IMG/VR virus record: IMGVR_UViG_2690316346_000013
Reading direction: 5' to 3' (one strand)
Source of the DNA: a virus
Lineage: Duplodnaviria; Heunggongvirae; Uroviricota; Caudoviricetes
Length of the DNA: 9,588 nt
Part shown: one piece after another, positions 1 through 9,588 of the stretch
How the letters are laid out: each line of letters opens with the position of its first letter
Numbering within the stretch: position 1 is the first letter of the stretch
Made by a program: the position numbers and the translations under genes
The notes under the pieces: model-generated
Told to the model about the DNA's origin: nothing
Database searches by the model: none
The model's input: the letters and a program-made list of their open reading frames with translations, nothing else

Positions 1-45
1 AAAAAAAGAACAAATGGTAGTGTCCGCTATTGCCAGTACACCTCA
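1..45 (+). mobile_element. IS600 (IS3 family) right-end fragment, cut by the window edge
   Basis: Bases 1..45 are identical to the last 45 bp of the complete element (3265..3309) and of the truncated copy (5939..5983), ending in the terminal ...CCTCA. A further IS copy probably lies just upstream of the window. Confidence 0.6.
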
Positions 46-172
46 GGGTATAAGGGGTTATGGCCACCGGACTACCAAACGGCTGCCAGCCCTCTTTCAG
101 TTTATGTGTCAGCTTTTCCGCAAGATCTGACGGCGGCGCCGCCCTGACAACATCATAGTGTTTAAATGCCAT
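1..172 (-). CDS. Small hypothetical protein (MAFKHYDVVRAAPPSDLAEKLTHKLKEGWQPFGSPV...), partial copy running off the window; its 3' end reads into IS600 sequence
   Basis: Same sequence as 5937..6110. The ATG at 172..170 has a GGTGGAAAG purine tract upstream. The native reading frame is interrupted at the IS boundary (45/46). Confidence 0.3.
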   Translation of the reverse strand, partial: MAFKHYDVVRAAPPSDLAEKLTHKLKEGWQPFGSPVAITPYTLRCTGNSGHYHLFFF

Positions 173-432
173 GGTTCTTTCCACCATCTGAAAAATAATT
201 CTTTAAAATACCTGACATGTAATACAGAAAAAACACAAAACCATACCTTAAATAAAAACCTGATTATCAAGCAGATATGCATGGATAAACTACAAGACGA
301 GATATAAACCACCCTGCATTTAAATAAACAATAAACAACATCAGAAAAATAATTCTGCTCTATGGTTTACATTCAAAAATATCATTTATACTTTTCAGAA
401 CATCACCAGCAAGGCATAAACAAGGAAACTAA

Positions 433-768
433 ATGAAGTGGATTGTGATTGATACAGTTATCCAGCCATCATGCGGAATATCTTTTTCAGTCATATGGAG
501 TAAAATAAAATTAATAATCTGGTATCAATCGGATGCTTTCTTACCTCCTGAAAGTATATTTACACTGACTCACACAGGCATCATGCTCAATAACAAAGTG
601 CTACCTGTAACCATTTACAACGTAGTACCATTCAATAAAACATTCTGGAATTCAATCAAAAATAGCCAGGAATGCCCTACAAATACAGATAACGTATTGA
701 ATGAATGCTTTAATAACCGTTGCACTCTGCAAATATGTCCTTATGGACTAAAACAACAAAGTCCATAA
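433..768 (+). CDS. Hypothetical 111-aa protein, Cys-containing C-terminal region, no family recognised
   Basis: ORF-track ORF with a good RBS (AAGGAA about 6 nt before the ATG). It follows a long AT-rich intergenic region and is followed by a perfect 8-bp GC hairpin. Codon usage is AT-rich, with 6 AUA codons by my count. Duplicated at 6371..6706. Confidence 0.5.
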
Positions 769-800
769 GGAGTTTACTCACATCTGACAAAATCAATATA

Positions 801-1025
801 AACAGCCCCTCCGGAGAGGGGCTGGAGAGTGGCGCTATGTGCCATTGCATGGTGCCGGGTGCCTCCCGGTGAATTCAGTACCAGCACCTGAATCCGCGAT
901 TATCCCATATACCTACTCGCTGATTGCCCCTCCGCACAGGGGGATTCACCATGCCAGTTTCTTTTAACAAACTCCCCGCAAACCAGACAACAGTCAACCG
1001 CCTGAATTGTGAAGTATTTAAAAAT
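801..1025. repeat. Hairpin-dense ~225-bp element, copy A (also 3497..3718 and 6739..6963)
   Basis: Four consecutive GC-rich stem-loops: 804..823 (agcccctc-cgga-gaggggct, perfect 8-bp stem), 855..869, 873..893 and 927..942, in otherwise AT-rich DNA. The copy at 3497..3718 differs by a handful of substitutions and a 1-nt deletion in the first stem, and has different flanks on both sides. Confidence 0.6.
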
Positions 1026-1048
1026 TTCTCCCGCTAACTGATACCCGG

Positions 1049-1135
1049 CTAACAGTCTGGCGTTTTCTTTTTCAGCAACGGGAAAGCAACAACCACCACA
1101 CCCGCCACCAGCACACCGTCAGCCAGCACTGACAT
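1049..1135 (-). CDS. Candidate small hydrophobic peptide (28 aa, MSVLADGVLVAGVVVVAFPLLKKKTPDC)
   Basis: Found by manual translation; it is below the ORF-track size cutoff. One predicted transmembrane-like helix followed by KKK. The SD is weak. An in-frame GTG upstream would give a 44-aa product. Duplicated at 6987..7073. Confidence 0.25.
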   Translation of the reverse strand: MSVLADGVLVAGVVVVAFPLLKKKTPDC

Positions 1136-1215
1136 TATCCGGCTGCTGCAATGCCATTCACAAAAACAGTAAGCAATCACTTTTTACCGTAACAGGTGAT
1201 AATCCAGATATGTAT

Positions 1216-1569
1216 CTACCCCAGATGAGTAATCCGAAGTTCATCCATACCACAGGTCCTGGCTATTCTGTTGTACTCCTGAACAAGAGCAAATAATTCT
1301 GAATTAGCAACCATGAACTCATCGCAAACCCTCTGTATAGCATCACTATTCAGAATAATAACGTCTCTTCCCGAAAGACGATCAGGAGTACAGAACAAAA
1401 CTGTCAAACGGCTGAAGGCCTTTGCTCGTGCTGCATTGACTATATCAATACGCTGCCTAAGGATGAAACACCCCGACGCCTCATCAATATTCACTCTACC
1501 CACACCATATGAATGATAAATATTTAATGCTGAAAAAACCATTAGACCGTATAACAAACACTCAATCAA
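1216..1569 (-). CDS. Hypothetical 117-aa protein, TTG start (internal ATG at codon 10 possible)
   Basis: ORF-track ORF whose translation looks protein-like (…[33 protein letters not shown]…). It is rich in rare Arg/Ile codons (AGA, AGG, AUA). Duplicated at 7154..7507. Start codon is uncertain. Confidence 0.4.
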
Positions 1570-1772
1570 TACTTAACAGAACTTTTATTAGTGCCAACTA
1601 TAAAGTGCTAGAATATTTTATCAATAATGGATTGGTTGATGTAAACAAAAAATTTCAAAAAGCAAATAGTGGGGACACTATGCTTGACAATGCAATGAAA
1701 AGCAAAGATTCAAAAATGATTGATTTTTTATTAAAAAATGGAGCAATATTAGGCAAACGATTTGAGATATGA
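1509..1772 (+). CDS. Ankyrin-repeat ORF fragment (87 aa), probably truncated or chimeric
   Basis: The translation contains ankyrin-like repeats: ...[22 protein letters not shown]... and [28 protein letters not shown] (G-x-T-x-L-x-x-A...LL-x-x-GA pattern). Only the first 81 nt lie inside the duplicated block; the repeats are encoded in unique DNA at 1590..1772. The start overlaps the 117-aa ORF on the opposite strand. Confidence 0.4.
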
Positions 1773-2109
1773 CCTAAAAGCTCGGCCAAATAATAATGTC
1801 GTCGATTATCGAAGTCATCATGAGTGATTCTGTCCCCACAGTGCAGCATCAGCATGACAGTGAATTGTCTGGCGTGGTCCATTTAATGAGATGGAGATGG
1901 TCCCTCTTTCCTAAATAGCTGTGCCTAATACCGCTACACTTTTGCCAGCCCATGTTTGCCTCCGGGGAATGGGCTGACGGTTCCTTCAAAATCCATTGCA
2001 CGCAGTTATGTCGGAGCGGGAACTTGACTCCCGTCTTTACGGGAGTGAGGTAGCCTGAGTTTAACGGACACTCCTTCCTGAAATAGAATGGCATCAGAAG
2101 GAGCCAATA

Positions 2110-2412
2110 ATGAGCAGAAAAACCCAACGTTACTCTACGGAGTTTAAAGCCGAAGCCGTCAAAACGGTTCCTGAAAATCAGCTTTCGATCAGTGAAGGCG
2201 CTTCCCGATTATCTCTTCCTGAAGGCACTTTAGGACAATGGGTTACCGCCGCAAGAAAAGGGCTCAATACACCAGGCTCCCGCACAGTGGCTGAGCTGGA
2301 ATCTGAAGTTATGCAACTGCGTAAGGCTTTAAATGAAGCACGACTTGAGCGAGATATATTAAAAAAAGCAACAGCGTATTTTGCACAGGAGTCGCTGAAA
2401 AATACGCGTTAA
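2110..2412 (+). CDS. IS600 transposase OrfA (HTH DNA-binding part), 100 aa
   Basis: RBS GAAGGAG before the ATG. N-terminal HTH followed by a leucine-zipper-like region, typical of IS3-family OrfA. Ends just after the A7G frameshift motif. Confidence 0.85.
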   Translation: MSRKTQRYSTEFKAEAVKTVPENQLSISEGASRLSLPEGTLGQWVTAARKGLNTPGSRTVAELESEVMQLRKALNEARLERDILKKATAYFAQESLKNTR

Positions 2413-2447
2413 TCGAACAATGGCGACAACAATTTCCCATTGAAGCG

Positions 2448-3266
2448 ATGTGTCAGGTATTTGGTGTATCCAGGAGCGGTTATTACAACTGGGTACAGCA
2501 TGAACCCTCAGACAGAAAACAAAGTGATGAGCGGCTAAAACTGGAGATTAAGGTGGCACATATCCGCACTCGCGAAACATATGGAACCCGGCGGCTCCAG
2601 ACGGAGCTGGCAGAGAATGGCATCATCGTTGGTCGTGACCGACTGGCACGTCTTCGTAAGGAGCTAAGGCTACGCTGTAAGCAGAAACGCAAGTTCAGAG
2701 CGACTACGAACTCGAACCACAATCTGCCAGTTGCGCCAAATCTGCTGAACCAGACGTTCGCTCCTACAGCACCAAATCAGGTCTGGGTGGCGGACCTGAC
2801 GTATGTTGCCACACAGGAGGGATGGTTGTACCTCGCTGGCATCAAAGATGTTTATACGTGCGAAATTGTCGGCTACGCCATGGGAGAGCGCATGACAAAA
2901 GAGCTGACAGGTAAAGCCCTGTTTATGGCGCTCAGGAGCCAGCGCCCACCTGCCGGGCTAATCCACCACTCTGATCGAGGTTCACAGTACTGCGCATACG
3001 ATTACCGGGTCATACAGGAGCAGTCTGGTCTGAAAACATCAATGTCGCGTAAAGGTAACTGTTACGACAACGCTCCGATGGAAAGCTTCTGGGGAACGCT
3101 GAAAAATGAGAGCCTGAGCCACTATCGTTTTAATAACCGGGATGAAGCCATCTCAGTAATACGGGAATACATTGAGATTTTCTACAATCGTCAGCGTCGT
3201 CACTCTCGTCTGGGGAATATCTCCCCGGCAGCCTTCAGGGAAAAATATCATCAGATGGCTGCTTAA
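2448..3266 (+). CDS. IS600 transposase OrfB (DDE catalytic domain), 272 aa as annotated; normally expressed as an OrfAB fusion by -1 frameshifting
   Basis: The orfB frame is open upstream to the A7G site at 2361..2368. The protein looks like an rve-type integrase core (…WVADLTYV… HHSDRGSQY… CYDNAPMESFWGTLK…). Confidence 0.85.
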   Translation: MCQVFGVSRSGYYNWVQHEPSDRKQSDERLKLEIKVAHIRTRETYGTRRLQTELAENGIIVGRDRLARLRKELRLRCKQKRKFRATTNSNHNLPVAPNLLNQTFAPTAPNQVWVADLTYVATQEGWLYLAGIKDVYTCEIVGYAMGERMTKELTGKALFMALRSQRPPAGLIHHSDRGSQYCAYDYRVIQEQSGLKTSMSRKGNCYDNAPMESFWGTLKNESLSHYRFNNRDEAISVIREYIEIFYNRQRRHSRLGNISPAAFREKYHQMAA

Positions 3267-3496
3267 AAAAAGAACAAATGGTAGTGTCCGCTATTGCCAG
3301 TACACCTCAGGATAGCGGTCATGTGATGCCGGTTTCCCGGTAACTCAGCACCGGTATCTGAGTCAACGTTTTCTCTACTGGGTCATTTCCGATACGCCCT
3401 GCCTGCTGACAGGCTTTCATCACATCTGAAAATATAGCACCCTGACTGATACTGTAGTACCTAAGGTTCCAGAAACTGTGATGTATCCGGCACAGA

Positions 3497-3718
3497 AAAG
3501 CCCCTCCGGAGAGGGCTGGAGAGTGGCGCTATGTGCCATTGCATGATGCCGGGTGCCTCCCGGTGAATTCAGTACCAGCACCTGAATCCGCGATTATCCC
3601 ATATACCTACTCGCTGATTGCCCCTCCGCACAGGGGGATTCACCATGCCAGTTTCTTTTAACAAACTCCCCGCAAAACAGACAACTGTCAACCGTCTGAA
3701 TTGTGAGACATTTAAAAA
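3497..3718. repeat. Hairpin-dense ~222-bp element, copy C (diverged copy of 801..1025)
   Basis: Alignable with 801..1025 across its whole length. Differences include gagaggggct to gagagggct, catggtg to catgatg, aaaccagacaacagtc to aaaacagacaactgtc, and gaagta to gagaca. It abuts the tRNA operon terminator. Confidence 0.6.
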
Positions 3719-3739
3719 AAAGGCCCGCAAAAGCGAGCC
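3714..3739 (-). terminator. Rho-independent terminator of the tRNA cluster (minus strand)
   Basis: On the minus strand: a 7-bp stem (ggcucgc / gcgggcc, one G.U pair) with a 4-nt loop, followed by a run of 8 U, starting 14 nt past the tRNA-Arg 3' end. Absent from the second tRNA copy. Confidence 0.55.
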
Positions 3740-3753
3740 AGGGAAAATAAGTG

Positions 3754-3830
3754 TGGCGCGTTGTACTGGATTCGAACCAGTGACCGATTGCTTAGAAGGC
3801 AATTGCTCTGTCCGGCTGAGCTAACAACGC
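3754..3830 (-). tRNA. tRNA-Arg (anticodon UCU), phage-type
   Basis: Manual cloverleaf, 77 nt: acceptor GCGTTGT/ACAACGC, D-arm GCTC...GAGC, anticodon arm ATTGC-CTTCTAA-GCAAT, T-arm ACTGG-TTCGAAT-CCAGT, then G-CCA. Confidence 0.8.
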
Positions 3831-3843
3831 ATGATGCAGATAA

Positions 3844-3920
3844 TGGACCGCCATCGGGGACTTGAACCCCGCGCAGCCAGCTTCGAAGGCTGGCGCTCTT
3901 TCCTGATGAGCTAATGGCGG
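3844..3920 (-). tRNA. tRNA-Arg (anticodon UCG), phage-type
   Basis: Manual cloverleaf, 77 nt: acceptor CCGCCAT/ATGGCGG (unusual C1-G72), D-arm GCTC...GAGC, anticodon arm CCAGC-CTTCGAA-GCTGG, T-arm CGGGG-TTCAAGT-CCCCG, then T-CCA. Confidence 0.7.
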
Positions 3921-3927
3921 TATGTGA

Positions 3928-4003
3928 TGGTGGCCCTTGCTGGATTTGAACCAGCGACCTGGCGATTATGAGTCGCTCGCTCTCACCACTGAGCTAAAGG
4001 GCC
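3928..4003 (-). tRNA. tRNA-Ile2-like (anticodon CAU, ileX/ileZ type, probably lysidine-modified to read AUA); tRNA-Met not excluded
   Basis: 76 nt. Strongly resembles E. coli ileX as I recall it (GGCCC.TTAGCTCAGTGGT.AGAGC..GCGACTCATAATCGC..GGTCGCTGGTTCAA.TCCAGCA.GGGCCACCA). Anticodon loop is CTCATAA. Confidence 0.8.
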
Positions 4004-4043
4004 GGGAGCCGCATAATAACGACGCGTAATTAATTCTTCAATA

Positions 4044-4844
4044 TCATCCGTTCTGGCTGACTAAATCCTGTACTTCCCGAACCGTCTGCTCAAAACGTTC
4101 AGTCTCCAGCTCAACGCCAATTGCACGACGCCCGAGCGCCAGTGCCGCTTTCACTGTCGAACCCAACCCCATGAAAAAATCTGCAATCAGGTCACCCGGA
4201 CGACTGCTAGCGCTGATTATCTGCTGCAGCATTTCTGCCGGTTTTTCGCACGGATGTTTCCCGGGATAGAACTGCACCGGTTTATGCGTCCACACATCGG
4301 TATACGGCACCTGCACCGTCACGCCAAAATACCGCCGCAGATGTTTATATTCACTCAGCAGCTCCGCATACTGCCGGTTCAGTGAGGTATACGTATCCAC
4401 CAGCTGGTGGTGGAGCTTTTCCAGTTCACCACGCCGATGCTTCTCTTCTGCCACCCGGGCAAACAGCGCCTGTAATTTCAGATAATCGCTTTCATTCGGC
4501 AACTGCCACTGACCGGCACTGAACCAGTGCGACACCATGTTTTTCTTTCCTGTGGCATCTGCAATCTGTTTTGCCGTTATCCCCAGGGCAGCTCGCGCAT
4601 CACGAAAGTAAGAAATCAGCGGGGCCATCACATGCTGTTTCAGTGCACTGCCCTTCGCCGCATACCCGGCATCTTTCGGACGATACGGCCCCTGATAATG
4701 TTCCGCGAACAGAATGCGCTCTGTGGCGGGGAAATACGCCCGCAGGCTTTCCTTGTTGCATCCGTTCCAGCGTCCGGACGGCTTCGCCCAGATAATATGG
4801 TTCAGCACACTGAAGCGTTCACGCATCATGATTTCGATATCAGA
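4044..4844 (-). pseudogene. 5'-truncated copy of the DNA methyltransferase (N-terminal ~87 codons including the DPPY motif replaced by IS600)
   Basis: Matches codons ~88..352 of the intact gene at 7908..8966. Homology stops at 4844, one base before IS600-derived sequence. No start codon or catalytic motif IV remains. Confidence 0.75.
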
Positions 4845-4845
4845 A

Positions 4846-5983
4846 TGAAAATCAACTTTCGATCAGTGAAGGCGCTTCCCGATTATCTCTTCCTGAAGGC
4901 ACTTTAGGACAATGGGTTACCGCCGCCAGAAAAGGGCTCGGTACTCCTGGTTCCCGCACGGTGGCTGAACTGGAATCTGAAATTCTGCAACTGCGTAAGG
5001 CGTTAAATGAAGCTCGCCTTGAGCGAGATATATTAAAAAAAGCAACAGCGTATTTTGCACAGGAGTCGCTGAAAAATACGCGTTAATCGAACAATGGCGA
5101 CAACAATTTCCCATTGAAGCGATGTGTCAGGTATTTGGTGTATCCAGGAGCGGTTATTACAACTGGGTACAGCATGAACCCTCAGACAGAAAACAAAGTG
5201 ATGAGCGGCTAAAACTGGAGATTAAGGTGGCACATATCCGCACTCGCGAAACATATGGAACCCGGCGGCTCCAGACGGAGCTGGCAGAGAATGGCATCAT
5301 CGTTGGTCGTGACCGACTGGCACGTCTTCGTAAGGAGCTAAGGCTACGCTGTAAGCAGAAACGCAAGTTCAGAGCGACTACGAACTCGAACCACAATCTG
5401 CCAGTTGCGCCAAATCTGCTGAACCAGACGTTCGCTCCTACAGCACCAAATCAGGTCTGGGTGGCGGACCTGACGTATGTTGCCACACAGGAGGGATGGT
5501 TGTACCTCGCTGGCATCAAAGATGTTTATACGTGCGAAATTGTCGGCTACGCCATGGGAGAGCGCATGACAAAAGAGCTGACAGGTAAAGCCCTGTTTAT
5601 GGCGCTCAGGAGCCAGCGCCCACCTGCCGGGCTAATCCACCACTCTGATCGAGGTTCACAGTACTGCGCATACGATTACCGGGTCATACAGGAGCAGTCT
5701 GGTCTGAAAACATCAATGTCGCGTAAAGGTAACTGTTACGACAACGCTCCGATGGAAAGCTTCTGGGGAACGCTGAAAAATGAGAGCCTGAGCCACTATC
5801 GTTTTAATAACCGGGATGAAGCCATCTCAGTAATACGGGAATACATTGAGATTTTCTACAATCGTCAGCGTCGTCACTCTCGTCTGGGGAATATCTCCCC
5901 GGCAGCCTTCAGGGAAAAATATCATCAGATGGCTGCTTAAAAAAAGAACAAATGGTAGTGTCCGCTATTGCCAGTACACCTCA
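4846..5983 (+). mobile_element. 5'-truncated IS600 (equivalent to positions ~127..1264; left inverted repeat and orfA start missing)
   Basis: From ~5030 to the end it is identical to the full copy. The first ~180 bp (4846..~5030) differ at about 14 positions from the full copy and encode the OrfA variant ...GLGTPGSRTVAELESEILQ..., i.e. a mosaic of two IS600 isoforms. Confidence 0.8.
5122..5940 (+). CDS. IS600 transposase OrfB (second copy), 272 aa; the upstream orfA is only a start-less fragment (4846..5086)
   Basis: Protein identical to the orfB product at 2448..3266. Confidence 0.8.
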   Translation: MCQVFGVSRSGYYNWVQHEPSDRKQSDERLKLEIKVAHIRTRETYGTRRLQTELAENGIIVGRDRLARLRKELRLRCKQKRKFRATTNSNHNLPVAPNLLNQTFAPTAPNQVWVADLTYVATQEGWLYLAGIKDVYTCEIVGYAMGERMTKELTGKALFMALRSQRPPAGLIHHSDRGSQYCAYDYRVIQEQSGLKTSMSRKGNCYDNAPMESFWGTLKNESLSHYRFNNRDEAISVIREYIEIFYNRQRRHSRLGNISPAAFREKYHQMAA

Positions 5984-6110
5984 GGGTATAAGGGGTTATG
6001 GCCACCGGACTACCAAACGGCTGCCAGCCCTCTTTCAGTTTATGTGTCAGCTTTTCCGCAAGATCTGACGGCGGCGCCGCCCTGACAACATCATAGTGTT
6101 TAAATGCCAT
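5937..6110 (-). CDS. Small hypothetical protein (MAFKHYDVVRAAPPSDLAEKLTHKLKEGWQPFGSPVAITPYTL...), 3' end fused to IS600 end sequence
   Basis: ATG at 6110..6108 with an upstream GGTGGAAAG tract; an alternative upstream ATG is at 6125. Native sequence ends at the IS600 boundary (5983/5984); the last ~14 codons are IS-derived. Confidence 0.3.
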   Translation of the reverse strand: MAFKHYDVVRAAPPSDLAEKLTHKLKEGWQPFGSPVAITPYTLRCTGNSGHYHLFFF

Positions 6111-6370
6111 GGTTCTTTCCACCATCTGAAAAATAATTCTTTAAAATACCTGACATGTAATACAGAAAAAACACAAAACCATACCTTAAATAAAAACCTG
6201 ATTATCAAGCAGATATGCATGGATAAACTACAAGACGAGATATAAACCACCCTGCATTTAAATAAACAATAAACAACATCAGAAAAATAATTCTGCTCTA
6301 TGGTTTACATTCAAAAATATCATTTATACTTTTCAGAACATCACCAGCAAGGCATAAACAAGGAAACTAA

Positions 6371-6706
6371 ATGAAGTGGATTGTGATTGATACAGTTATC
6401 CAGCCATCATGCGGAATATCTTTTTCAGTCATATGGAGTAAAATAAAATTAATAATCTGGTATCAATCGGATGCTTTCTTACCTCCTGAAAGTATATTTA
6501 CACTGACTCACACAGGCATCATGCTCAATAACAAAGTGCTACCTGTAACCATTTACAACGTAGTACCATTCAATAAAACATTCTGGAATTCAATCAAAAA
6601 TAGCCAGGAATGCCCTACAAATACAGATAACGTATTGAATGAATGCTTTAATAACCGTTGCACTCTGCAAATATGTCCTTATGGACTAAAACAACAAAGT
6701 CCATAA
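6371..6706 (+). CDS. Hypothetical 111-aa protein (duplicate of 433..768)
   Basis: Sequence identical to 433..768, with the same RBS and the same downstream hairpin. Confidence 0.5.
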
Positions 6707-6738
6707 GGAGTTTACTCACATCTGACAAAATCAATATA

Positions 6739-6963
6739 AACAGCCCCTCCGGAGAGGGGCTGGAGAGTGGCGCTATGTGCCATTGCATGGTGCCGGGTGC
6801 CTCCCGGTGAATTCAGTACCAGCACCTGAATCCGCGATTATCCCATATACCTACTCGCTGATTGCCCCTCCGCACAGGGGGATTCACCATGCCAGTTTCT
6901 TTTAACAAACTCCCCGCAAACCAGACAACAGTCAACCGCCTGAATTGTGAAGTATTTAAAAAT
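6739..6963. repeat. Hairpin-dense ~225-bp element, copy A' (identical to 801..1025)
   Basis: Lies inside the 1,589-bp duplication. Confidence 0.6.
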
Positions 6964-6986
6964 TTCTCCCGCTAACTGATACCCGG

Positions 6987-7073
6987 CTAACAGTCTGGCG
7001 TTTTCTTTTTCAGCAACGGGAAAGCAACAACCACCACACCCGCCACCAGCACACCGTCAGCCAGCACTGACAT
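6987..7073 (-). CDS. Candidate small hydrophobic peptide (duplicate of 1049..1135)
   Basis: Identical sequence. Confidence 0.25.
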   Translation of the reverse strand: MSVLADGVLVAGVVVVAFPLLKKKTPDC

Positions 7074-7153
7074 TATCCGGCTGCTGCAATGCCATTCACA
7101 AAAACAGTAAGCAATCACTTTTTACCGTAACAGGTGATAATCCAGATATGTAT

Positions 7154-7507
7154 CTACCCCAGATGAGTAATCCGAAGTTCATCCATACCACAGGTCCTGG
7201 CTATTCTGTTGTACTCCTGAACAAGAGCAAATAATTCTGAATTAGCAACCATGAACTCATCGCAAACCCTCTGTATAGCATCACTATTCAGAATAATAAC
7301 GTCTCTTCCCGAAAGACGATCAGGAGTACAGAACAAAACTGTCAAACGGCTGAAGGCCTTTGCTCGTGCTGCATTGACTATATCAATACGCTGCCTAAGG
7401 ATGAAACACCCCGACGCCTCATCAATATTCACTCTACCCACACCATATGAATGATAAATATTTAATGCTGAAAAAACCATTAGACCGTATAACAAACACT
7501 CAATCAA
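7154..7507 (-). CDS. Hypothetical 117-aa protein (duplicate of 1216..1569)
   Basis: Identical sequence. Here it lies about 110 bp downstream of the tRNA cluster on the same strand, with no terminator between them. Confidence 0.4.
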   Translation of the reverse strand: MIECLLYGLMVFSALNIYHSYGVGRVNIDEASGCFILRQRIDIVNAARAKAFSRLTVLFCTPDRLSGRDVIILNSDAIQRVCDEFMVANSELFALVQEYNRIARTCGMDELRITHLG

Positions 7508-7617
7508 TACTTAACAGAACTTTTATTTTTGACAAACATAAAATATTTTCAACAATATCCTGAGCCAGGTATATTTCAGTATAAGGCTCTGCCGGAAGGA
7601 ATCTGGAAGAATGAATA

Positions 7618-7694
7618 TGGCGCGCTGTACTGGATTCGAACCAGTGACCGATTGCTTAGAAGGCAATTGCTCTGTCCGGCTGAGCTAACAACGC
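7618..7694 (-). tRNA. tRNA-Arg (anticodon UCU), second copy with U4.G69 in the acceptor stem
   Basis: Same as 3754..3830 except for c at 7625 (t at 3761), which turns the U4-A69 pair into a U.G wobble. Confidence 0.75.
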
Positions 7695-7707
7695 ATGATG
7701 CAGATAA

Positions 7708-7784
7708 TGGACCGCCATCGGGGACTTGAACCCCGCGCAGCCAGCTTCGAAGGCTGGCGCTCTTTCCTGATGAGCTAATGGCGG
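7708..7784 (-). tRNA. tRNA-Arg (anticodon UCG), second copy
   Basis: Identical to 3844..3920. Confidence 0.7.
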
Positions 7785-7791
7785 TATGTGA

Positions 7792-7867
7792 TGGTGGCCC
7801 TTGCTGGATTTGAACCAGCGACCTGGCGATTATGAGTCGCTCGCTCTCACCACTGAGCTAAAGGGCC
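7792..7867 (-). tRNA. tRNA-Ile2-like (anticodon CAU), second copy
   Basis: Identical to 3928..4003. Confidence 0.8.
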
Positions 7868-7907
7868 GGGAGCCGCATAATAACGACGCGTAATTAATTC
7901 TTCAATA

Positions 7908-8966
7908 TCATCCGTTCTGGCTGACTAAATCCTGTACTTCCCGAACCGTCTGCTCAAAACGTTCAGTCTCCAGCTCAACGCCAATTGCACGACGCCCGAG
8001 CGCCAGTGCCGCTTTCACTGTCGAACCCAACCCCATGAAAAAATCTGCAATCAGGTCACCCGGACGACTGCTAGCGCTGATTATCTGCTGCAGCATTTCT
8101 GCCGGTTTTTCGCACGGATGTTTCCCGGGATAGAACTGCACCGGTTTATGCGTCCACACATCGGTATACGGCACCTGCACCGTCACGCCAAAATACCGCC
8201 GCAGATGTTTATATTCACTCAGCAGCTCCGCATACTGCCGGTTCAGTGAGGTATACGTATCCACCAGCTGGTGGTGGAGCTTTTCCAGTTCACCACGCCG
8301 ATGCTTCTCTTCTGCCACCCGGGCAAACAGCGCCTGTAATTTCAGATAATCGCTTTCATTCGGCAACTGCCACTGACCGGCACTGAACCAGTGCGACACC
8401 ATGTTTTTCTTTCCTGTGGCATCTGCAATCTGTTTTGCCGTTATCCCCAGGGCAGCTCGCGCATCACGAAAGTAAGAAATCAGCGGGGCCATCACATGCT
8501 GTTTCAGTGCACTGCCCTTCGCCGCATACCCGGCATCTTTCGGACGATACGGCCCCTGATAATGTTCCGCGAACAGAATGCGCTCTGTGGCGGGGAAATA
8601 CGCCCGCAGGCTTTCCTTGTTGCATCCGTTCCAGCGTCCGGACGGCTTCGCCCAGATAATATGGTTCAGCACACTGAAGCGTTCACGCATCATGATTTCG
8701 ATATCAGATGCCAGGCGATGACCACAGAACAGGTAAAGACTTCCGGCAGGTTTCAGCACCCGCCAGAACTGCGCCAGACACTGGTCCAGCCACTTCAGGT
8801 AATCATCGTCGCCCTTCCACTGGTTATCCCAGCCCTCAGGCTTCACTTTAAAGTACGGCGGGTCCGTGACTATCAGGTCAACAGAATTTTCGGGTAACGA
8901 CCGGATAAATTCCAGGCAGTCGGCGTTGATTAACTCACAACTGGATATTTTTACAGTATTAAGCAT
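7908..8966 (-). CDS. Beta-class amino-DNA methyltransferase (N6-adenine or N4-cytosine), 352 aa, phage-type orphan
   Basis: Motif IV DPPY (…DLIVTDPPYF…) near the N-terminus and motif I FxGxG (…DFFMGLGSTV…) near the C-terminus, which is the beta-class order. No adjacent restriction endonuclease candidate. Sits immediately upstream of the tRNA triplet on the same strand. Confidence 0.85.
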   Translation of the reverse strand: MLNTVKISSCELINADCLEFIRSLPENSVDLIVTDPPYFKVKPEGWDNQWKGDDDYLKWLDQCLAQFWRVLKPAGSLYLFCGHRLASDIEIMMRERFSVLNHIIWAKPSGRWNGCNKESLRAYFPATERILFAEHYQGPYRPKDAGYAAKGSALKQHVMAPLISYFRDARAALGITAKQIADATGKKNMVSHWFSAGQWQLPNESDYLKLQALFARVAEEKHRRGELEKLHHQLVDTYTSLNRQYAELLSEYKHLRRYFGVTVQVPYTDVWTHKPVQFYPGKHPCEKPAEMLQQIISASSRPGDLIADFFMGLGSTVKAALALGRRAIGVELETERFEQTVREVQDLVSQNG

Positions 8967-8998
8967 GGATCATTAAGCCTGTCTCTGATAGGCTCATT

Positions 8999-9017
8999 CT
9001 GCTTTTGCGCAAAGCAG
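8999..9017. promoter_or_regulatory. Near-perfect palindrome (ctgcttt-tgcgca-aagcag) 33 bp upstream of the methyltransferase start: candidate operator or RNA hairpin
   Basis: Dyad symmetry read directly from the sequence; function is inferred. Confidence 0.3.
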
Positions 9018-9058
9018 TGGGCCTGAGGTTTGCTTGTGAACCCAACGCATGAGCAGAT

Positions 9059-9089
9059 GGCTGGTGGGTGCCCCTAACACCCACCAGCC
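9059..9089 (-). other. Strong hairpin (perfect 12-bp stem ggctggtgggtg / cacccaccagcc, 7-nt loop) with no U-tract
   Basis: Perfect inverted repeat between the upstream terminator and the methyltransferase. Not followed by a T-run on either strand, so it is not a canonical intrinsic terminator. Confidence 0.4.
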
Positions 9090-9100
9090 GCCCATTTACC

Positions 9101-9130
9101 ACAAATAAAAAAGCCTTCACTGCGGAAGGC
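9101..9130 (-). terminator. Rho-independent terminator after the 65-aa gene (minus strand)
   Basis: On the minus strand: stem gccuuc / gaaggc with a 6-nt loop, followed by UUUUUUAUUU. The TGA stop of the 65-aa ORF lies inside the stem. Confidence 0.6.
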
Positions 9131-9314
9131 GTCTGTAACAACCGAACTGATAGTCTGCCAGACCCGCCATAACCAGCTGGGTCAGTATTAACTGGCAGCG
9201 TTCGCGTGAAAGGTAAGTATTCTGCGCTATCTCCCCGACTGTCGCCGGTTCGGTAACGCTTAATTCATTAAACACCACTCTGGCGGTTTCTGTCATATCC
9301 TGCTGTTTTAGCAT
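9117..9314 (-). CDS. Small HTH-like DNA-binding protein, 65 aa
   Basis: Good RBS (GGAAAAGGAAAAG before the ATG). The segment …ATVGEIAQNTYLSRERCQLILTQLVMAGLA… has the spacing of a helix-turn-helix or winged-helix motif. Bracketed by two intrinsic terminators. Confidence 0.5.
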   Translation of the reverse strand: MLKQQDMTETARVVFNELSVTEPATVGEIAQNTYLSRERCQLILTQLVMAGLADYQFGCYRRLPQ

Positions 9315-9434
9315 GTCTTTTCCTTTTCCGGTTAACGTGACACACCAATAACTCTTGTCGAAAAAGCCAGCAAGCTGAAAGACAGGTATTCACCGCCACC
9401 AGCGCGTTTACTGTACTGACGCGATTTCAGTCAT

Positions 9435-9458
9435 AAAAAACCCGCTCGGCGGCGGGTT
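9435..9458 (-). terminator. Rho-independent terminator (minus strand) downstream of a gene whose 3' end lies at the window edge
   Basis: On the minus strand: stem cccgc / gcggg, extendable by two A-U pairs, followed by a run of 6 U. An open minus-strand reading frame enters from the window end (about 9557..9588). Confidence 0.55.
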
Positions 9459-9588
9459 GTAGAAACTCTTCTAACGTCAGGCATAAAACGCCCATCGTTA
9501 TGACGAATTTACCACAGATTCCGGAAAAATCAACCTTGTTACCTAGTTACCTTTTTTAACTGCCGCTCAGCCCATGCTTCTTCAATAT

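Follow-up and report, generated by a model that had tools for sequence, protein, structure and literature searches.

Chromosomal integration of the Shigella and EIEC virulence plasmid by insertion sequences is known. In Shigella dysenteriae type 1, an IS600-flanked Shiga-toxin unit is described as undergoing amplification in tandem as well as deletion (McDonough & Butterton 1999, as cited in PMC7819885). On the side of genome assembly, SSPACE and GapFiller proceed greedily and can introduce false joins; an N is written at each join, and GapFiller is run for 120 iterations (Sanger pipeline paper, PMC5320598). GapFiller extends both edges of a gap with 30-mers and closes the gap only at an overlap of at least 10 nt (PMC3446322).

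The window, i.e., the whole stretch of 9,588 bp analyzed here, had been put forward in a preliminary description as an IS600-bounded segmental duplication, resulting either from a recent IS-mediated event or from an assembly artefact. The evidence favors the artefact over the duplication: the window is very probably a mis-scaffolded, redundantly extended short-read draft contig. This conclusion is carried by the Ns at two joins, the mosaic of sources, and the single-copy state of the modules in closed genomes. Comparison with the public record identified the window as the entire contig CXEQ01000242.1 of draft assembly GCA_001258815.1, with Shigella sonnei as the almost certain source organism. 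Only two bases differ from the record, both at the scaffold joins listed in Table 1.

Repeats and their sources

The window was painted by 31-mer comparison with closed S. sonnei replicons, namely locus 1 (a prophage remnant with tRNAs, a DNA methyltransferase, and Q), locus 2 (a prophage remnant with IS600 and an iraM-like block), and the virulence plasmid pINV. The resulting order was locus 2, N, pINV, a shared stretch of 41 bp, chromosomal IS600, locus 1, N, IS600, locus 2, a shared stretch of 69 bp, and locus 1. Every change of source coincides with an N, the generic IS600 body, or a short stretch common to the sources (41 bp of IS600, 69 bp of tRNA-Arg). In an IS-bounded duplication, the segments would be contiguous neighbors in the unduplicated ancestor; those of the window map in closed genomes to pINV and to two distant chromosomal loci, 671 kb apart in CP104423.1 and 782 kb in 53G, which leaves the headline duplication unsupported. 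Among closed E. coli genomes, plasmids, and phage records, none covered 80% or more of the window at a single place.

The repeats themselves were largely as described. The perfect 1.59-kb repeat held in its identity (positions 1-1589 and 5939-7527, 100%), but it does not lie entirely behind the IS end, as 45 of the 1,589 bp are IS600 and the identical non-IS block (block A) measures 1,544 bp. The tRNA/methyltransferase module is indeed present twice, at 3742-4844 and 7605-8708, and includes a further perfect repeat, 1,083 bp in length (3762-4844 and 7626-8708, 100%); both lengths are far above chance expectation. IS600 right ends were likewise recovered at 1-45, 3265-3309, and 5939-5983. With a blast identity of 99.55%, the two module copies were also considered as diverged paralogues, which was rejected since all differences are confined to the initial 21 bp and each copy corresponds to locus 1.

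Block A is contiguous with IS600 in closed genomes and occurs once per genome, adjoining Q'' (284 aa); copy 1 is 100% identical to the closed genomes L010-L012. In independent draft contigs of other isolates, block A is followed by Q''/RusA and not by the methyltransferase. The exact 352-aa methyltransferase is found in one copy in closed chromosomes, in a different prophage from block A. Comparison with related genomes did not bear out a duplication, each module being single-copy in every closed chromosome displayed. The cut in the methyltransferase gene at 4844 is a contig end and no real truncation, and the gene runs on uninterrupted in closed genomes. The window follows a lambdoid (Stx-phage-like) late-region order of Q, DNA methyltransferase, ileZ-argN-argO-type tRNAs, moron site, nanS-p, and holin. 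An annotated E. coli O104:H4 prophage is colinear with it at 97%, and closed S. sonnei locus 1 is arranged in the same way. Stx phages match at 93%, with stx occupying the corresponding site.

Table 1. Features of the window by position, with strand and source
Feature	Position	Strand	Remarks
IS600 right end at contig start	1..45	+	31-mers 1-47 common to chromosomal IS600 copies
Block A copy 1, locus 2	46..1589	-	100% identical to 5984-7527; locus-2 31-mers only; ends at N
nanS-p 5' fragment (DUF1737)	within 46..1589		block A copy 1
iraM-like/PmrD-family ORF	433-768	+	block A copy 1
STnc100	794-983		block A copy 1
DUF3927	about 1049-1180		block A copy 1
ORF117	1216-1569		block A copy 1
Scaffold join	1590..1590	.	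N in CXEQ01000242.1, A in window; makes spurious 87-aa ORF 1509-1772
pINV DNA: last 60 codons of T3SS effector gene ospC4 (1591-1772) and spacer to IS600	1591..2046	+	Pfam Shigella_OspC, E=2e-28
Complete IS600, orfA 2110-2412, orfB 2448-3266	2047..3309	+	Pfam HTH_Tnp_1, E=1e-18; rve, E=9e-26
Locus 1 (ompW-side lambdoid prophage remnant), first stretch	3310..4844	-	locus-1 31-mers only; 100% identical to closed genomes
STnc100, in spacer	3488-3677		Rfam/ARAGORN annotation, first locus-1 stretch
tRNA-Arg(TCT)	3754-3830		ARAGORN/Rfam
tRNA-Arg(TCG)	3844-3920		ARAGORN/Rfam
tRNA-Met/Ile2(CAT)	3928-4003		ARAGORN/Rfam
DNA methyltransferase gene, 3' 801 bp	ends 4844	-	first locus-1 stretch
Scaffold join	4845..4845	.	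N in CXEQ01000242.1, A in window
IS600 without first ~125 bp	4846..5983	+	chromosomal type from about element position 126
Block A copy 2 and native continuation to tRNA-Arg(TCT), locus 2	5984..7625	-	locus-2 31-mers
DUF1737 fragment	5937-6110		block A copy 2
iraM-like ORF	6371-6706	+	block A copy 2
STnc100	6732-6921		block A copy 2
DUF3927	within 5984..7625		block A copy 2
ORF117	7154-7507		block A copy 2
69-bp stretch within tRNA-Arg(TCT), identical in loci 1 and 2	7626..7694	-	alignment and 31-mer painting; contig changes from locus 2 to locus 1 inside it
Locus 1, second stretch	7695..9588	-	locus-1 31-mers
tRNA-Arg(TCG)	7708-7784		second locus-1 stretch
tRNA-Met/Ile2	7792-7867		second locus-1 stretch
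Full DNA methyltransferase	7908-8966	-	second locus-1 stretch
65-aa ORF	9117-9314		second locus-1 stretch
Antiterminator Q, last ~50 nt	contig end		second locus-1 stretch

IS600 copies and virulence-plasmid DNA

The complete IS600 (2047-3309), the partial IS600 (4846-5983), and the invasion-plasmid DNA (1591-2046) had been missed in the preliminary description. The plasmid segment is 100% identical to EIEC pINV records and has a further match in the ospC4-IS600 region of S. sonnei pINVs, with pSS_046 aligning to 1591-3310 at 96.2%. The complete element has the structure expected of IS600 (IS3 family; ~1.26 kb, 5'-TG...CA-3', orfA with HTH and orfB with DDE/rve), reads TGAGGTAGCC...CACCTCA, and is 98-100% identical to copies annotated as IS600. 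It is a hybrid, which follows the ospC4-adjacent pINV variant up to 2343 and the chromosomal consensus from 2385 on, the change falling within the shared 41 bp; this hybrid was not found among the pINV records compared. For the pieces that contain IS600, the match to S. sonnei pINVs is about 95% (averaged over two overlapping pieces), and the ospC4-adjacent IS600 of pSS_046 carries about 60 differences along its length. Between the two IS600 copies of the window, 14 differences were counted, all in 2181-2343. The element at 2047-3309 is not flanked by a 3-bp target duplication, its left flank being GAG and its right flank GGA. The true locus-1 insertion, with the same right junction, has GGA on both sides in CP104423.1, and the site is empty in 53G; the comparison indicates that the window copy joins the flanks of two separate insertions. 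The insertions of IS600 as such are real and unremarkable.

A real crossover between plasmid and chromosome would likewise leave a hybrid IS600, and the window could be partly real in that pINV and the chromosome recombined within IS600 at locus 1, between the copy there and the ospC4-adjacent copy of the plasmid (a cointegrate with a true junction of ospC4, hybrid IS600, and locus 1), and/or that locus 2 was converted by locus 1 past tRNA-Arg (second tRNA/methyltransferase/Q), while the N joins would still be artefacts. Neither of these junctions holds an N, and both fall where the sequences are perfectly identical, as homologous exchange requires. The crossover, however, would have taken place in a 41-bp island of identity within the most diverged IS600 of pINV (93-96% identical) and bypassed at least five near-identical IS600 copies on the plasmid. 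As for the conversion, the order of block A, tRNA, and methyltransferase in 5984-9588 is natural in the related E. coli O104:H4 prophage, so a real event in this isolate is possible, but another draft switches from locus 2 to locus 1 in a different shared stretch (see below). Neither junction occurred in the closed genomes or independent drafts examined. We regard a partly real window as very improbable.

Joins in two draft assemblies

The breakpoints at 1589/1590 and 4844/4846 had been described as sharp and, lying away from IS termini, as a sign of deletion or illegitimate recombination. The public record has an N at both 1590 and 4845; these breakpoints are thus single-N scaffold joins without a sequenced junction, and neither claim could be upheld. 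Both Ns directly terminate the first copy of a perfect non-IS repeat. To the right of each N, the sequence begins one base past a site that varies among repeat copies, which is the equivalent of IS600 site 2171 for 4846 and a G/A site distinguishing ospC paralogues in their alignment for 1591. Microhomology was absent at 1589/1591 (...AAAGATG/GTGCC in pINV, ...TTTTATT/N/GTGCC in the window), and none of the 31-mers across 1590 or 4845 was present in any reference locus (closed S. sonnei loci and pINV). The 87-aa product created at 1590, looked up as a marker of other contigs with that junction, returned no record, as is explained by the N in the record at this position. According to the 31-mer comparison, both scaffold ends consist of 45-48 bp of repeat, the contig end being a 48-bp stretch common to loci 1 and 2. 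Gaps of ~250 N are present in sister drafts.

A second draft, FTUD01000126.1, joins the same pieces and carries an N beside the same IS600 base as 4845 of the window. The methyltransferase side of this join runs 57 bp further than in the window, and the switch from locus 2 to locus 1 falls in a different shared stretch (130 bp, STnc100), as expected from assembler ambiguity. The junctions are thus neither sequenced nor the same in every assembly. Reading the Ns as mere ambiguous base calls within true junctions was rejected, since the sequences on either side come from different replicon locations and the left end point varies between drafts. As in a scaffolding artefact, undetermined bases mark the joins, the pieces are non-adjacent in finished genomes, and the source switches only in sequence common to the sources, at sites varying by draft.

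A real IS600-mediated segmental duplication or amplification would mean that both modules truly exist in two copies inside 9.6 kb and that secondary deletions occurred at 1589/1590 and 4844/4846. Although the perfect repeats are flanked by IS600 in direct orientation, and amplification of such units is known from the S. dysenteriae type 1 system cited above (McDonough & Butterton 1999, via PMC7819885), both supposed deletion junctions are Ns, and the methyltransferase end point varies between the two drafts. Rather than repeating head to tail, the unit is pieced together from three replicon locations as a mosaic. At least four rearrangements, including the capture of plasmid DNA, would be needed for it, and it was not present in any closed genome sampled. 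A real duplication is therefore highly improbable.

For the favored artefact, a scaffolder would have joined three pieces (1-1589, 1591-4844, and 4846-9588) over single-N gaps, with two of the three pieces also being chimeric internally. The real genome would hold each of the following once: locus 1 with IS600, spacer, tRNA-Arg, tRNA-Arg, tRNA-Ile2, DNA methyltransferase, and Q; locus 2 with IS600 inside nanS-p, the iraM-like block, tRNA-Arg, diverged tRNAs, and a different Q; and ospC4 followed by a diverged IS600 on the virulence plasmid. The assembly would have crossed between the loci at shared sequence, i.e., the IS600 body, the 41-bp IS600 island, and the 69-bp tRNA-Arg stretch. On either side of the false joins, the sequence would then have been extended along its own true continuation, so that block A and the tRNA/methyltransferase module were written twice in the scaffold. 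As the software route, we infer greedy scaffolding and k=30 gap filling as in a Velvet/SSPACE/GapFiller pipeline, whose description fits, although the end of piece 1 at 1589 is left unexplained.

The underlying real biology is already known from closed genomes and comprises two IS600-disrupted lambdoid prophage remnants and the plasmid ospC4-IS600 locus. Caution is needed as short-read scaffolds of IS-rich genomes such as Shigella can display perfect kilobase repeats that do not exist in the cell, along with false "truncated" genes and plasmid DNA within prophages. The replacement of N by a base conceals the sole visible warning and also produces a false ORF. If real, a cointegrate of plasmid and chromosome in S. 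sonnei would matter for the stability of the virulence plasmid; nothing here supports one.

Comparison with known systems

The S. dysenteriae type 1 Shiga-toxin unit (cited in PMC7819885) shares with the window a defective lambdoid late region (Q, tRNAs, moron site of stx, nanS-p) invaded by IS600. Unlike that unit, the window holds neither stx genes nor a head-to-tail unit, its "novel junctions" are Ns, and the copies are single in closed S. sonnei. The succession of plasmid flank, hybrid IS, and chromosomal flank in 1591-3741 resembles IS-mediated integration of the virulence plasmid, whereas the hybrid switches in the 41-bp island of the most diverged IS600, and the junction was not seen in closed genomes. 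With regards to artefacts of the Velvet/SSPACE/GapFiller type (PMC5320598, PMC3446322), the redundancy of ~1-1.5 kb is longer than could be accounted for stepwise. The window nevertheless shares with them joins of a single N, contigs that end at repeat boundaries or at polymorphic sites of repeats, chimeric paths via sequence common to paralogous loci, a redundant flank at an unclosed gap, and an IS-rich organism.

Repeats and gene content of the window

Self-comparison reproduced the repeats of the preliminary description: positions 1-1589 and 5939-7527 are identical, the right end of IS600 is present three times (1-45, 3265-3309 and 5939-5983), and the tRNA/methyltransferase module occurs twice (3742-4844 matching 7605-8708), with differences confined to the first 21 bp of the copies. 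Positions 3762-4844 and 7626-8708 are likewise identical, giving a further perfect repeat (1,083 bp), and 2172-3311 differs from 4846-5985 by 14 mismatches, every one in 2181-2343. A 225-bp block (800-1024 and 6738-6962) has a third occurrence at 3496-3718 with 96% identity. This block is a full-length Rfam STnc100 match (124-132 bits, gathering score 47). STnc100 is located downstream of the tRNA genes in each of the two lambdoid prophage remnants of the Shigella sonnei chromosome, locus 1 and locus 2, which share an identical 130-bp core.

Overlooked so far were a complete IS600 (2047-3309), an IS600 without its first ~125 bp (4846-5983), and the 60 codons at the 3' end of ospC4, a type-III effector gene (1591-1772; Pfam Shigella_OspC, E=2e-28), which show 100% identity to EIEC invasion plasmids and match the ospC4-IS600 region that S. 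sonnei plasmids carry. The remaining DNA, read on the minus strand, represents a lambdoid prophage late regulatory region, ordered Q 3' end, 65-aa ORF, N6/N4 DNA methyltransferase, three tRNAs (Met-CAT, Arg-TCG and Arg-TCT by ARAGORN), small RNA, DUF3927, iraM-like ORF and nanS-p 5' end. The tRNA at 3928-4003 and 7792-7867 (minus strand) is Met (CAT) according to ARAGORN, whereas its RefSeq homologue is tRNA-Ile; with the two tRNA-Arg genes, it makes up an ileZ-argN-argO-type cluster, as in Stx phages.

Features and sources along the window (pINV, virulence plasmid)
Feature or source	Position	Strand	Basis
Locus 2	1-1589		31-mer painting
STnc100	794-983, 3488-3677, 6732-6921	minus	Rfam
N	1590		31-mer painting
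pINV-specific	1591-2373		31-mer painting
IS600 orfA	2110-2412		Pfam HTH_Tnp_1
Common to all IS600 copies (41 bp)	2344-2384		31-mer painting
Chromosomal IS600	2355-3311		31-mer painting
IS600 orfB	2448-3266		Pfam rve
Locus 1	3282-4844		31-mer painting
N	4845		31-mer painting
Chromosomal IS600	4846-5985		31-mer painting
Locus 2	5956-7655		31-mer painting
Common to locus 1 and locus 2 (69 bp inside tRNA-Arg-TCT)	7626-7694		31-mer painting
Locus 1	7665-9588		31-mer painting

Scaffold joins and mosaic of sources

A 261-aa 'truncated methyltransferase' led to CXEQ01000242.1 (draft assembly GCA_001258815.1), which equals the window in reverse except for positions 1590 and 4845, each an 'N' in the public record and an 'A' in the window. 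The breakpoints 1589/1590 and 4844/4846, previously described as sharp and not coinciding with IS termini, therefore are not sequenced junctions but scaffold joins, and the scaffold comprises three sub-contigs (1-1589, 1591-4844 and 4846-9588). For each perfect non-IS repeat, the first copy stops exactly at one of these Ns. The substituted 'A' conceals the gaps, and a contig end then mimics a 261-aa truncated methyltransferase (ORF 4044-4829). Likewise, the 87-aa ORF at 1509-1772 is a false fusion because A replaces N at 1590, and a look-up returned no record of such a protein.

The window was painted with 31-mers from locus 1, locus 2 and pINV references, and each source switch thus falls at an N, in generic IS600 body or in a short identity stretch. 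Right of N4845, the sequence begins one base past IS600 site 2171, which varies among copies; right of N1590, it begins one base past a position where ospC4 and ospC2 differ (G/A), at most 25 bp from where a 99% ospC repeat of the plasmid ends. Besides ospC1, ospC2 and ospC4, plasmid pSS_046 carries two stray ospC fragments (L031 4777-5259 and 3457-3627; 99% and 97% identity with portions of ospC4), because of which short-read contigs break inside ospC4. Each scaffold end carries a repeat of 45-48 bp: the left one belongs to IS600, the right one is Q sequence common to both loci.

By alignment, the window follows locus 2 until tRNA-Arg(TCT) ends and locus 1 immediately afterwards, and true locus 2 beyond this tRNA is clearly different. 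A partly real structure, with gene conversion of locus 2 by locus 1, a crossover between plasmid and chromosome within IS600, or both, would place both junctions within identity stretches, as observed, and the order block A (nanS-p fragment to ORF117), tRNA, methyltransferase is known from a related E. coli O104:H4 prophage. However, the crossover would involve the most diverged IS600 of the plasmid, though at least five near-identical copies are present there, and a second draft (L002, FTUD01000126.1) passes from locus 2 into locus 1 elsewhere, inside the 130-bp STnc100 core. We consider this reading very unlikely. In L002, the N adjoins the very same IS600 base as N4845, but the methyltransferase side is 57 bp longer, ending at the equivalent of 8765 instead of 8708. 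An inherited deletion junction would match in both drafts; for contig ends and assembler ambiguity, no such agreement is required.

Location of each segment in closed genomes

The junction of the IS600 right end with the DUF1737 fragment, together with block A, is found exactly once per closed chromosome, among them CP104423.1, LR213449.1 and HE616528.1 (S. sonnei 53G). The other chromosomes were presumed to be S. sonnei because of their ~100% match to 53G and the window flanks. Block A has a single context there, locus 2 (203-aa ORF, IS600, DUF1737 fragment, iraM-like ORF, DUF3927, ORF117, tRNA-Arg, diverged tRNA stretch, Q'' of 284 aa, RusA, IS21), and in independent drafts from other isolates, too, Q''/RusA comes after block A within a single contig. 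The exact 352-aa methyltransferase has one copy, in locus 1, a separate prophage adjoining ompW (Q of 273 aa, 65-aa ORF, methyltransferase, tRNAs, STnc100, spacer, (IS600), nanS-p, holin). The two loci are separated by 671 kb in CP104423.1 and by 782 kb in 53G, and ospC4 followed by an IS600 belongs to the virulence plasmid (pSS_046). Among closed E. coli genomes, plasmids and phage records, none spans 80% of the window at a single site.

On its other flank, outside the window, the locus-2 IS600 (L010-L019) borders an unrelated segment (203-aa ORF to Dam and resolvase) and not the remaining nanS-p; therefore, the S. sonnei lineage underwent a real IS600-associated deletion or rearrangement at locus 2. 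CP046286.1 has an additional IS600 between DUF3927 and Q''. Such IS600 copies and prophage remnants are ordinary and already known in S. sonnei genomes.

The complete IS600 is a hybrid: up to 2343, its SNPs are those of the diverged plasmid copy next to ospC4 (base 2215 excepted), and from 2385 onward it has the chromosomal consensus. Over its own ospC4-adjacent copy, pSS_046 shows ~60 differences, and the identity of S. sonnei pINV records to this window segment is ~95%, as the mean of two overlapping pieces. The ospC4-adjacent element (L030 3440-4740; pSS_046 69,1xx-70,355; window 2047-2343) is a diverged variant with ~93-96% identity to the remaining plasmid and chromosomal copies, themselves 98-100% alike. 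The hybrid is flanked by GAG (left) and GGA (right). At the same right-hand junction, CP104423.1 has a clean insertion with GGA target duplication, and 53G an empty site. This locus-1 insertion (window 3309/3310; L020 and L027 versus L024, L028 and L029) is also found in LR213449.1 and missing in CP029794.1 and VFAD01000001.1, which makes it a candidate lineage marker.

Origin of the structure and comparison with stx regions

The window's structure may originate from a Velvet/SSPACE/GapFiller-type assembly. The Sanger prokaryote pipeline runs Velvet, SSPACE and GapFiller (120 iterations), and its authors describe the tools as greedy and capable of false joins, with N written at joins (PMC5320598). 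GapFiller extends both gap edges by 30-mers under a majority rule and closes gaps only at overlaps of at least 10 nt (PMC3446322). Such steps would fit several window features, the end of the first piece at 1589 not among them: extension halts at positions that vary between copies of a repeat, the source changes within the 41-bp identity island, which is ~300 bp into IS600 and thus about one insert length from its edge, and the true continuation of a flank is written up to a lone N despite the same sequence elsewhere in the scaffold. Sister drafts contain ~250-N gaps typical of such scaffolds, and the pipeline paper's supplement includes S. sonnei assemblies with neighbouring accession prefixes (PMC5320598).

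A real IS600-mediated amplification in the isolate would need at least four rearrangements, plasmid DNA capture included; two of its junctions fall on Ns, and it was seen in none of the closed genomes sampled, which makes it extremely improbable. The preliminary description had offered a recent IS-mediated duplication or an assembly artefact; given the N joins, the three-source mosaic and the single copies in closed genomes, its interpretation is partly supported, in the artefact alternative only. The repeats are present in the file, yet they are almost certainly an assembly artefact and no real genomic feature.

In S. dysenteriae 1, the stx region flanked by IS600 undergoes amplification and deletion (McDonough & Butterton 1999, as cited in PMC7819885). 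An amplification unit has sequenced novel junctions and contiguous source segments, and the window has neither. Its DNA is of the same kind as that stx region, and Stx phages carry stx at the site where the window has DUF3927 and the iraM-like/PmrD-family ORF.
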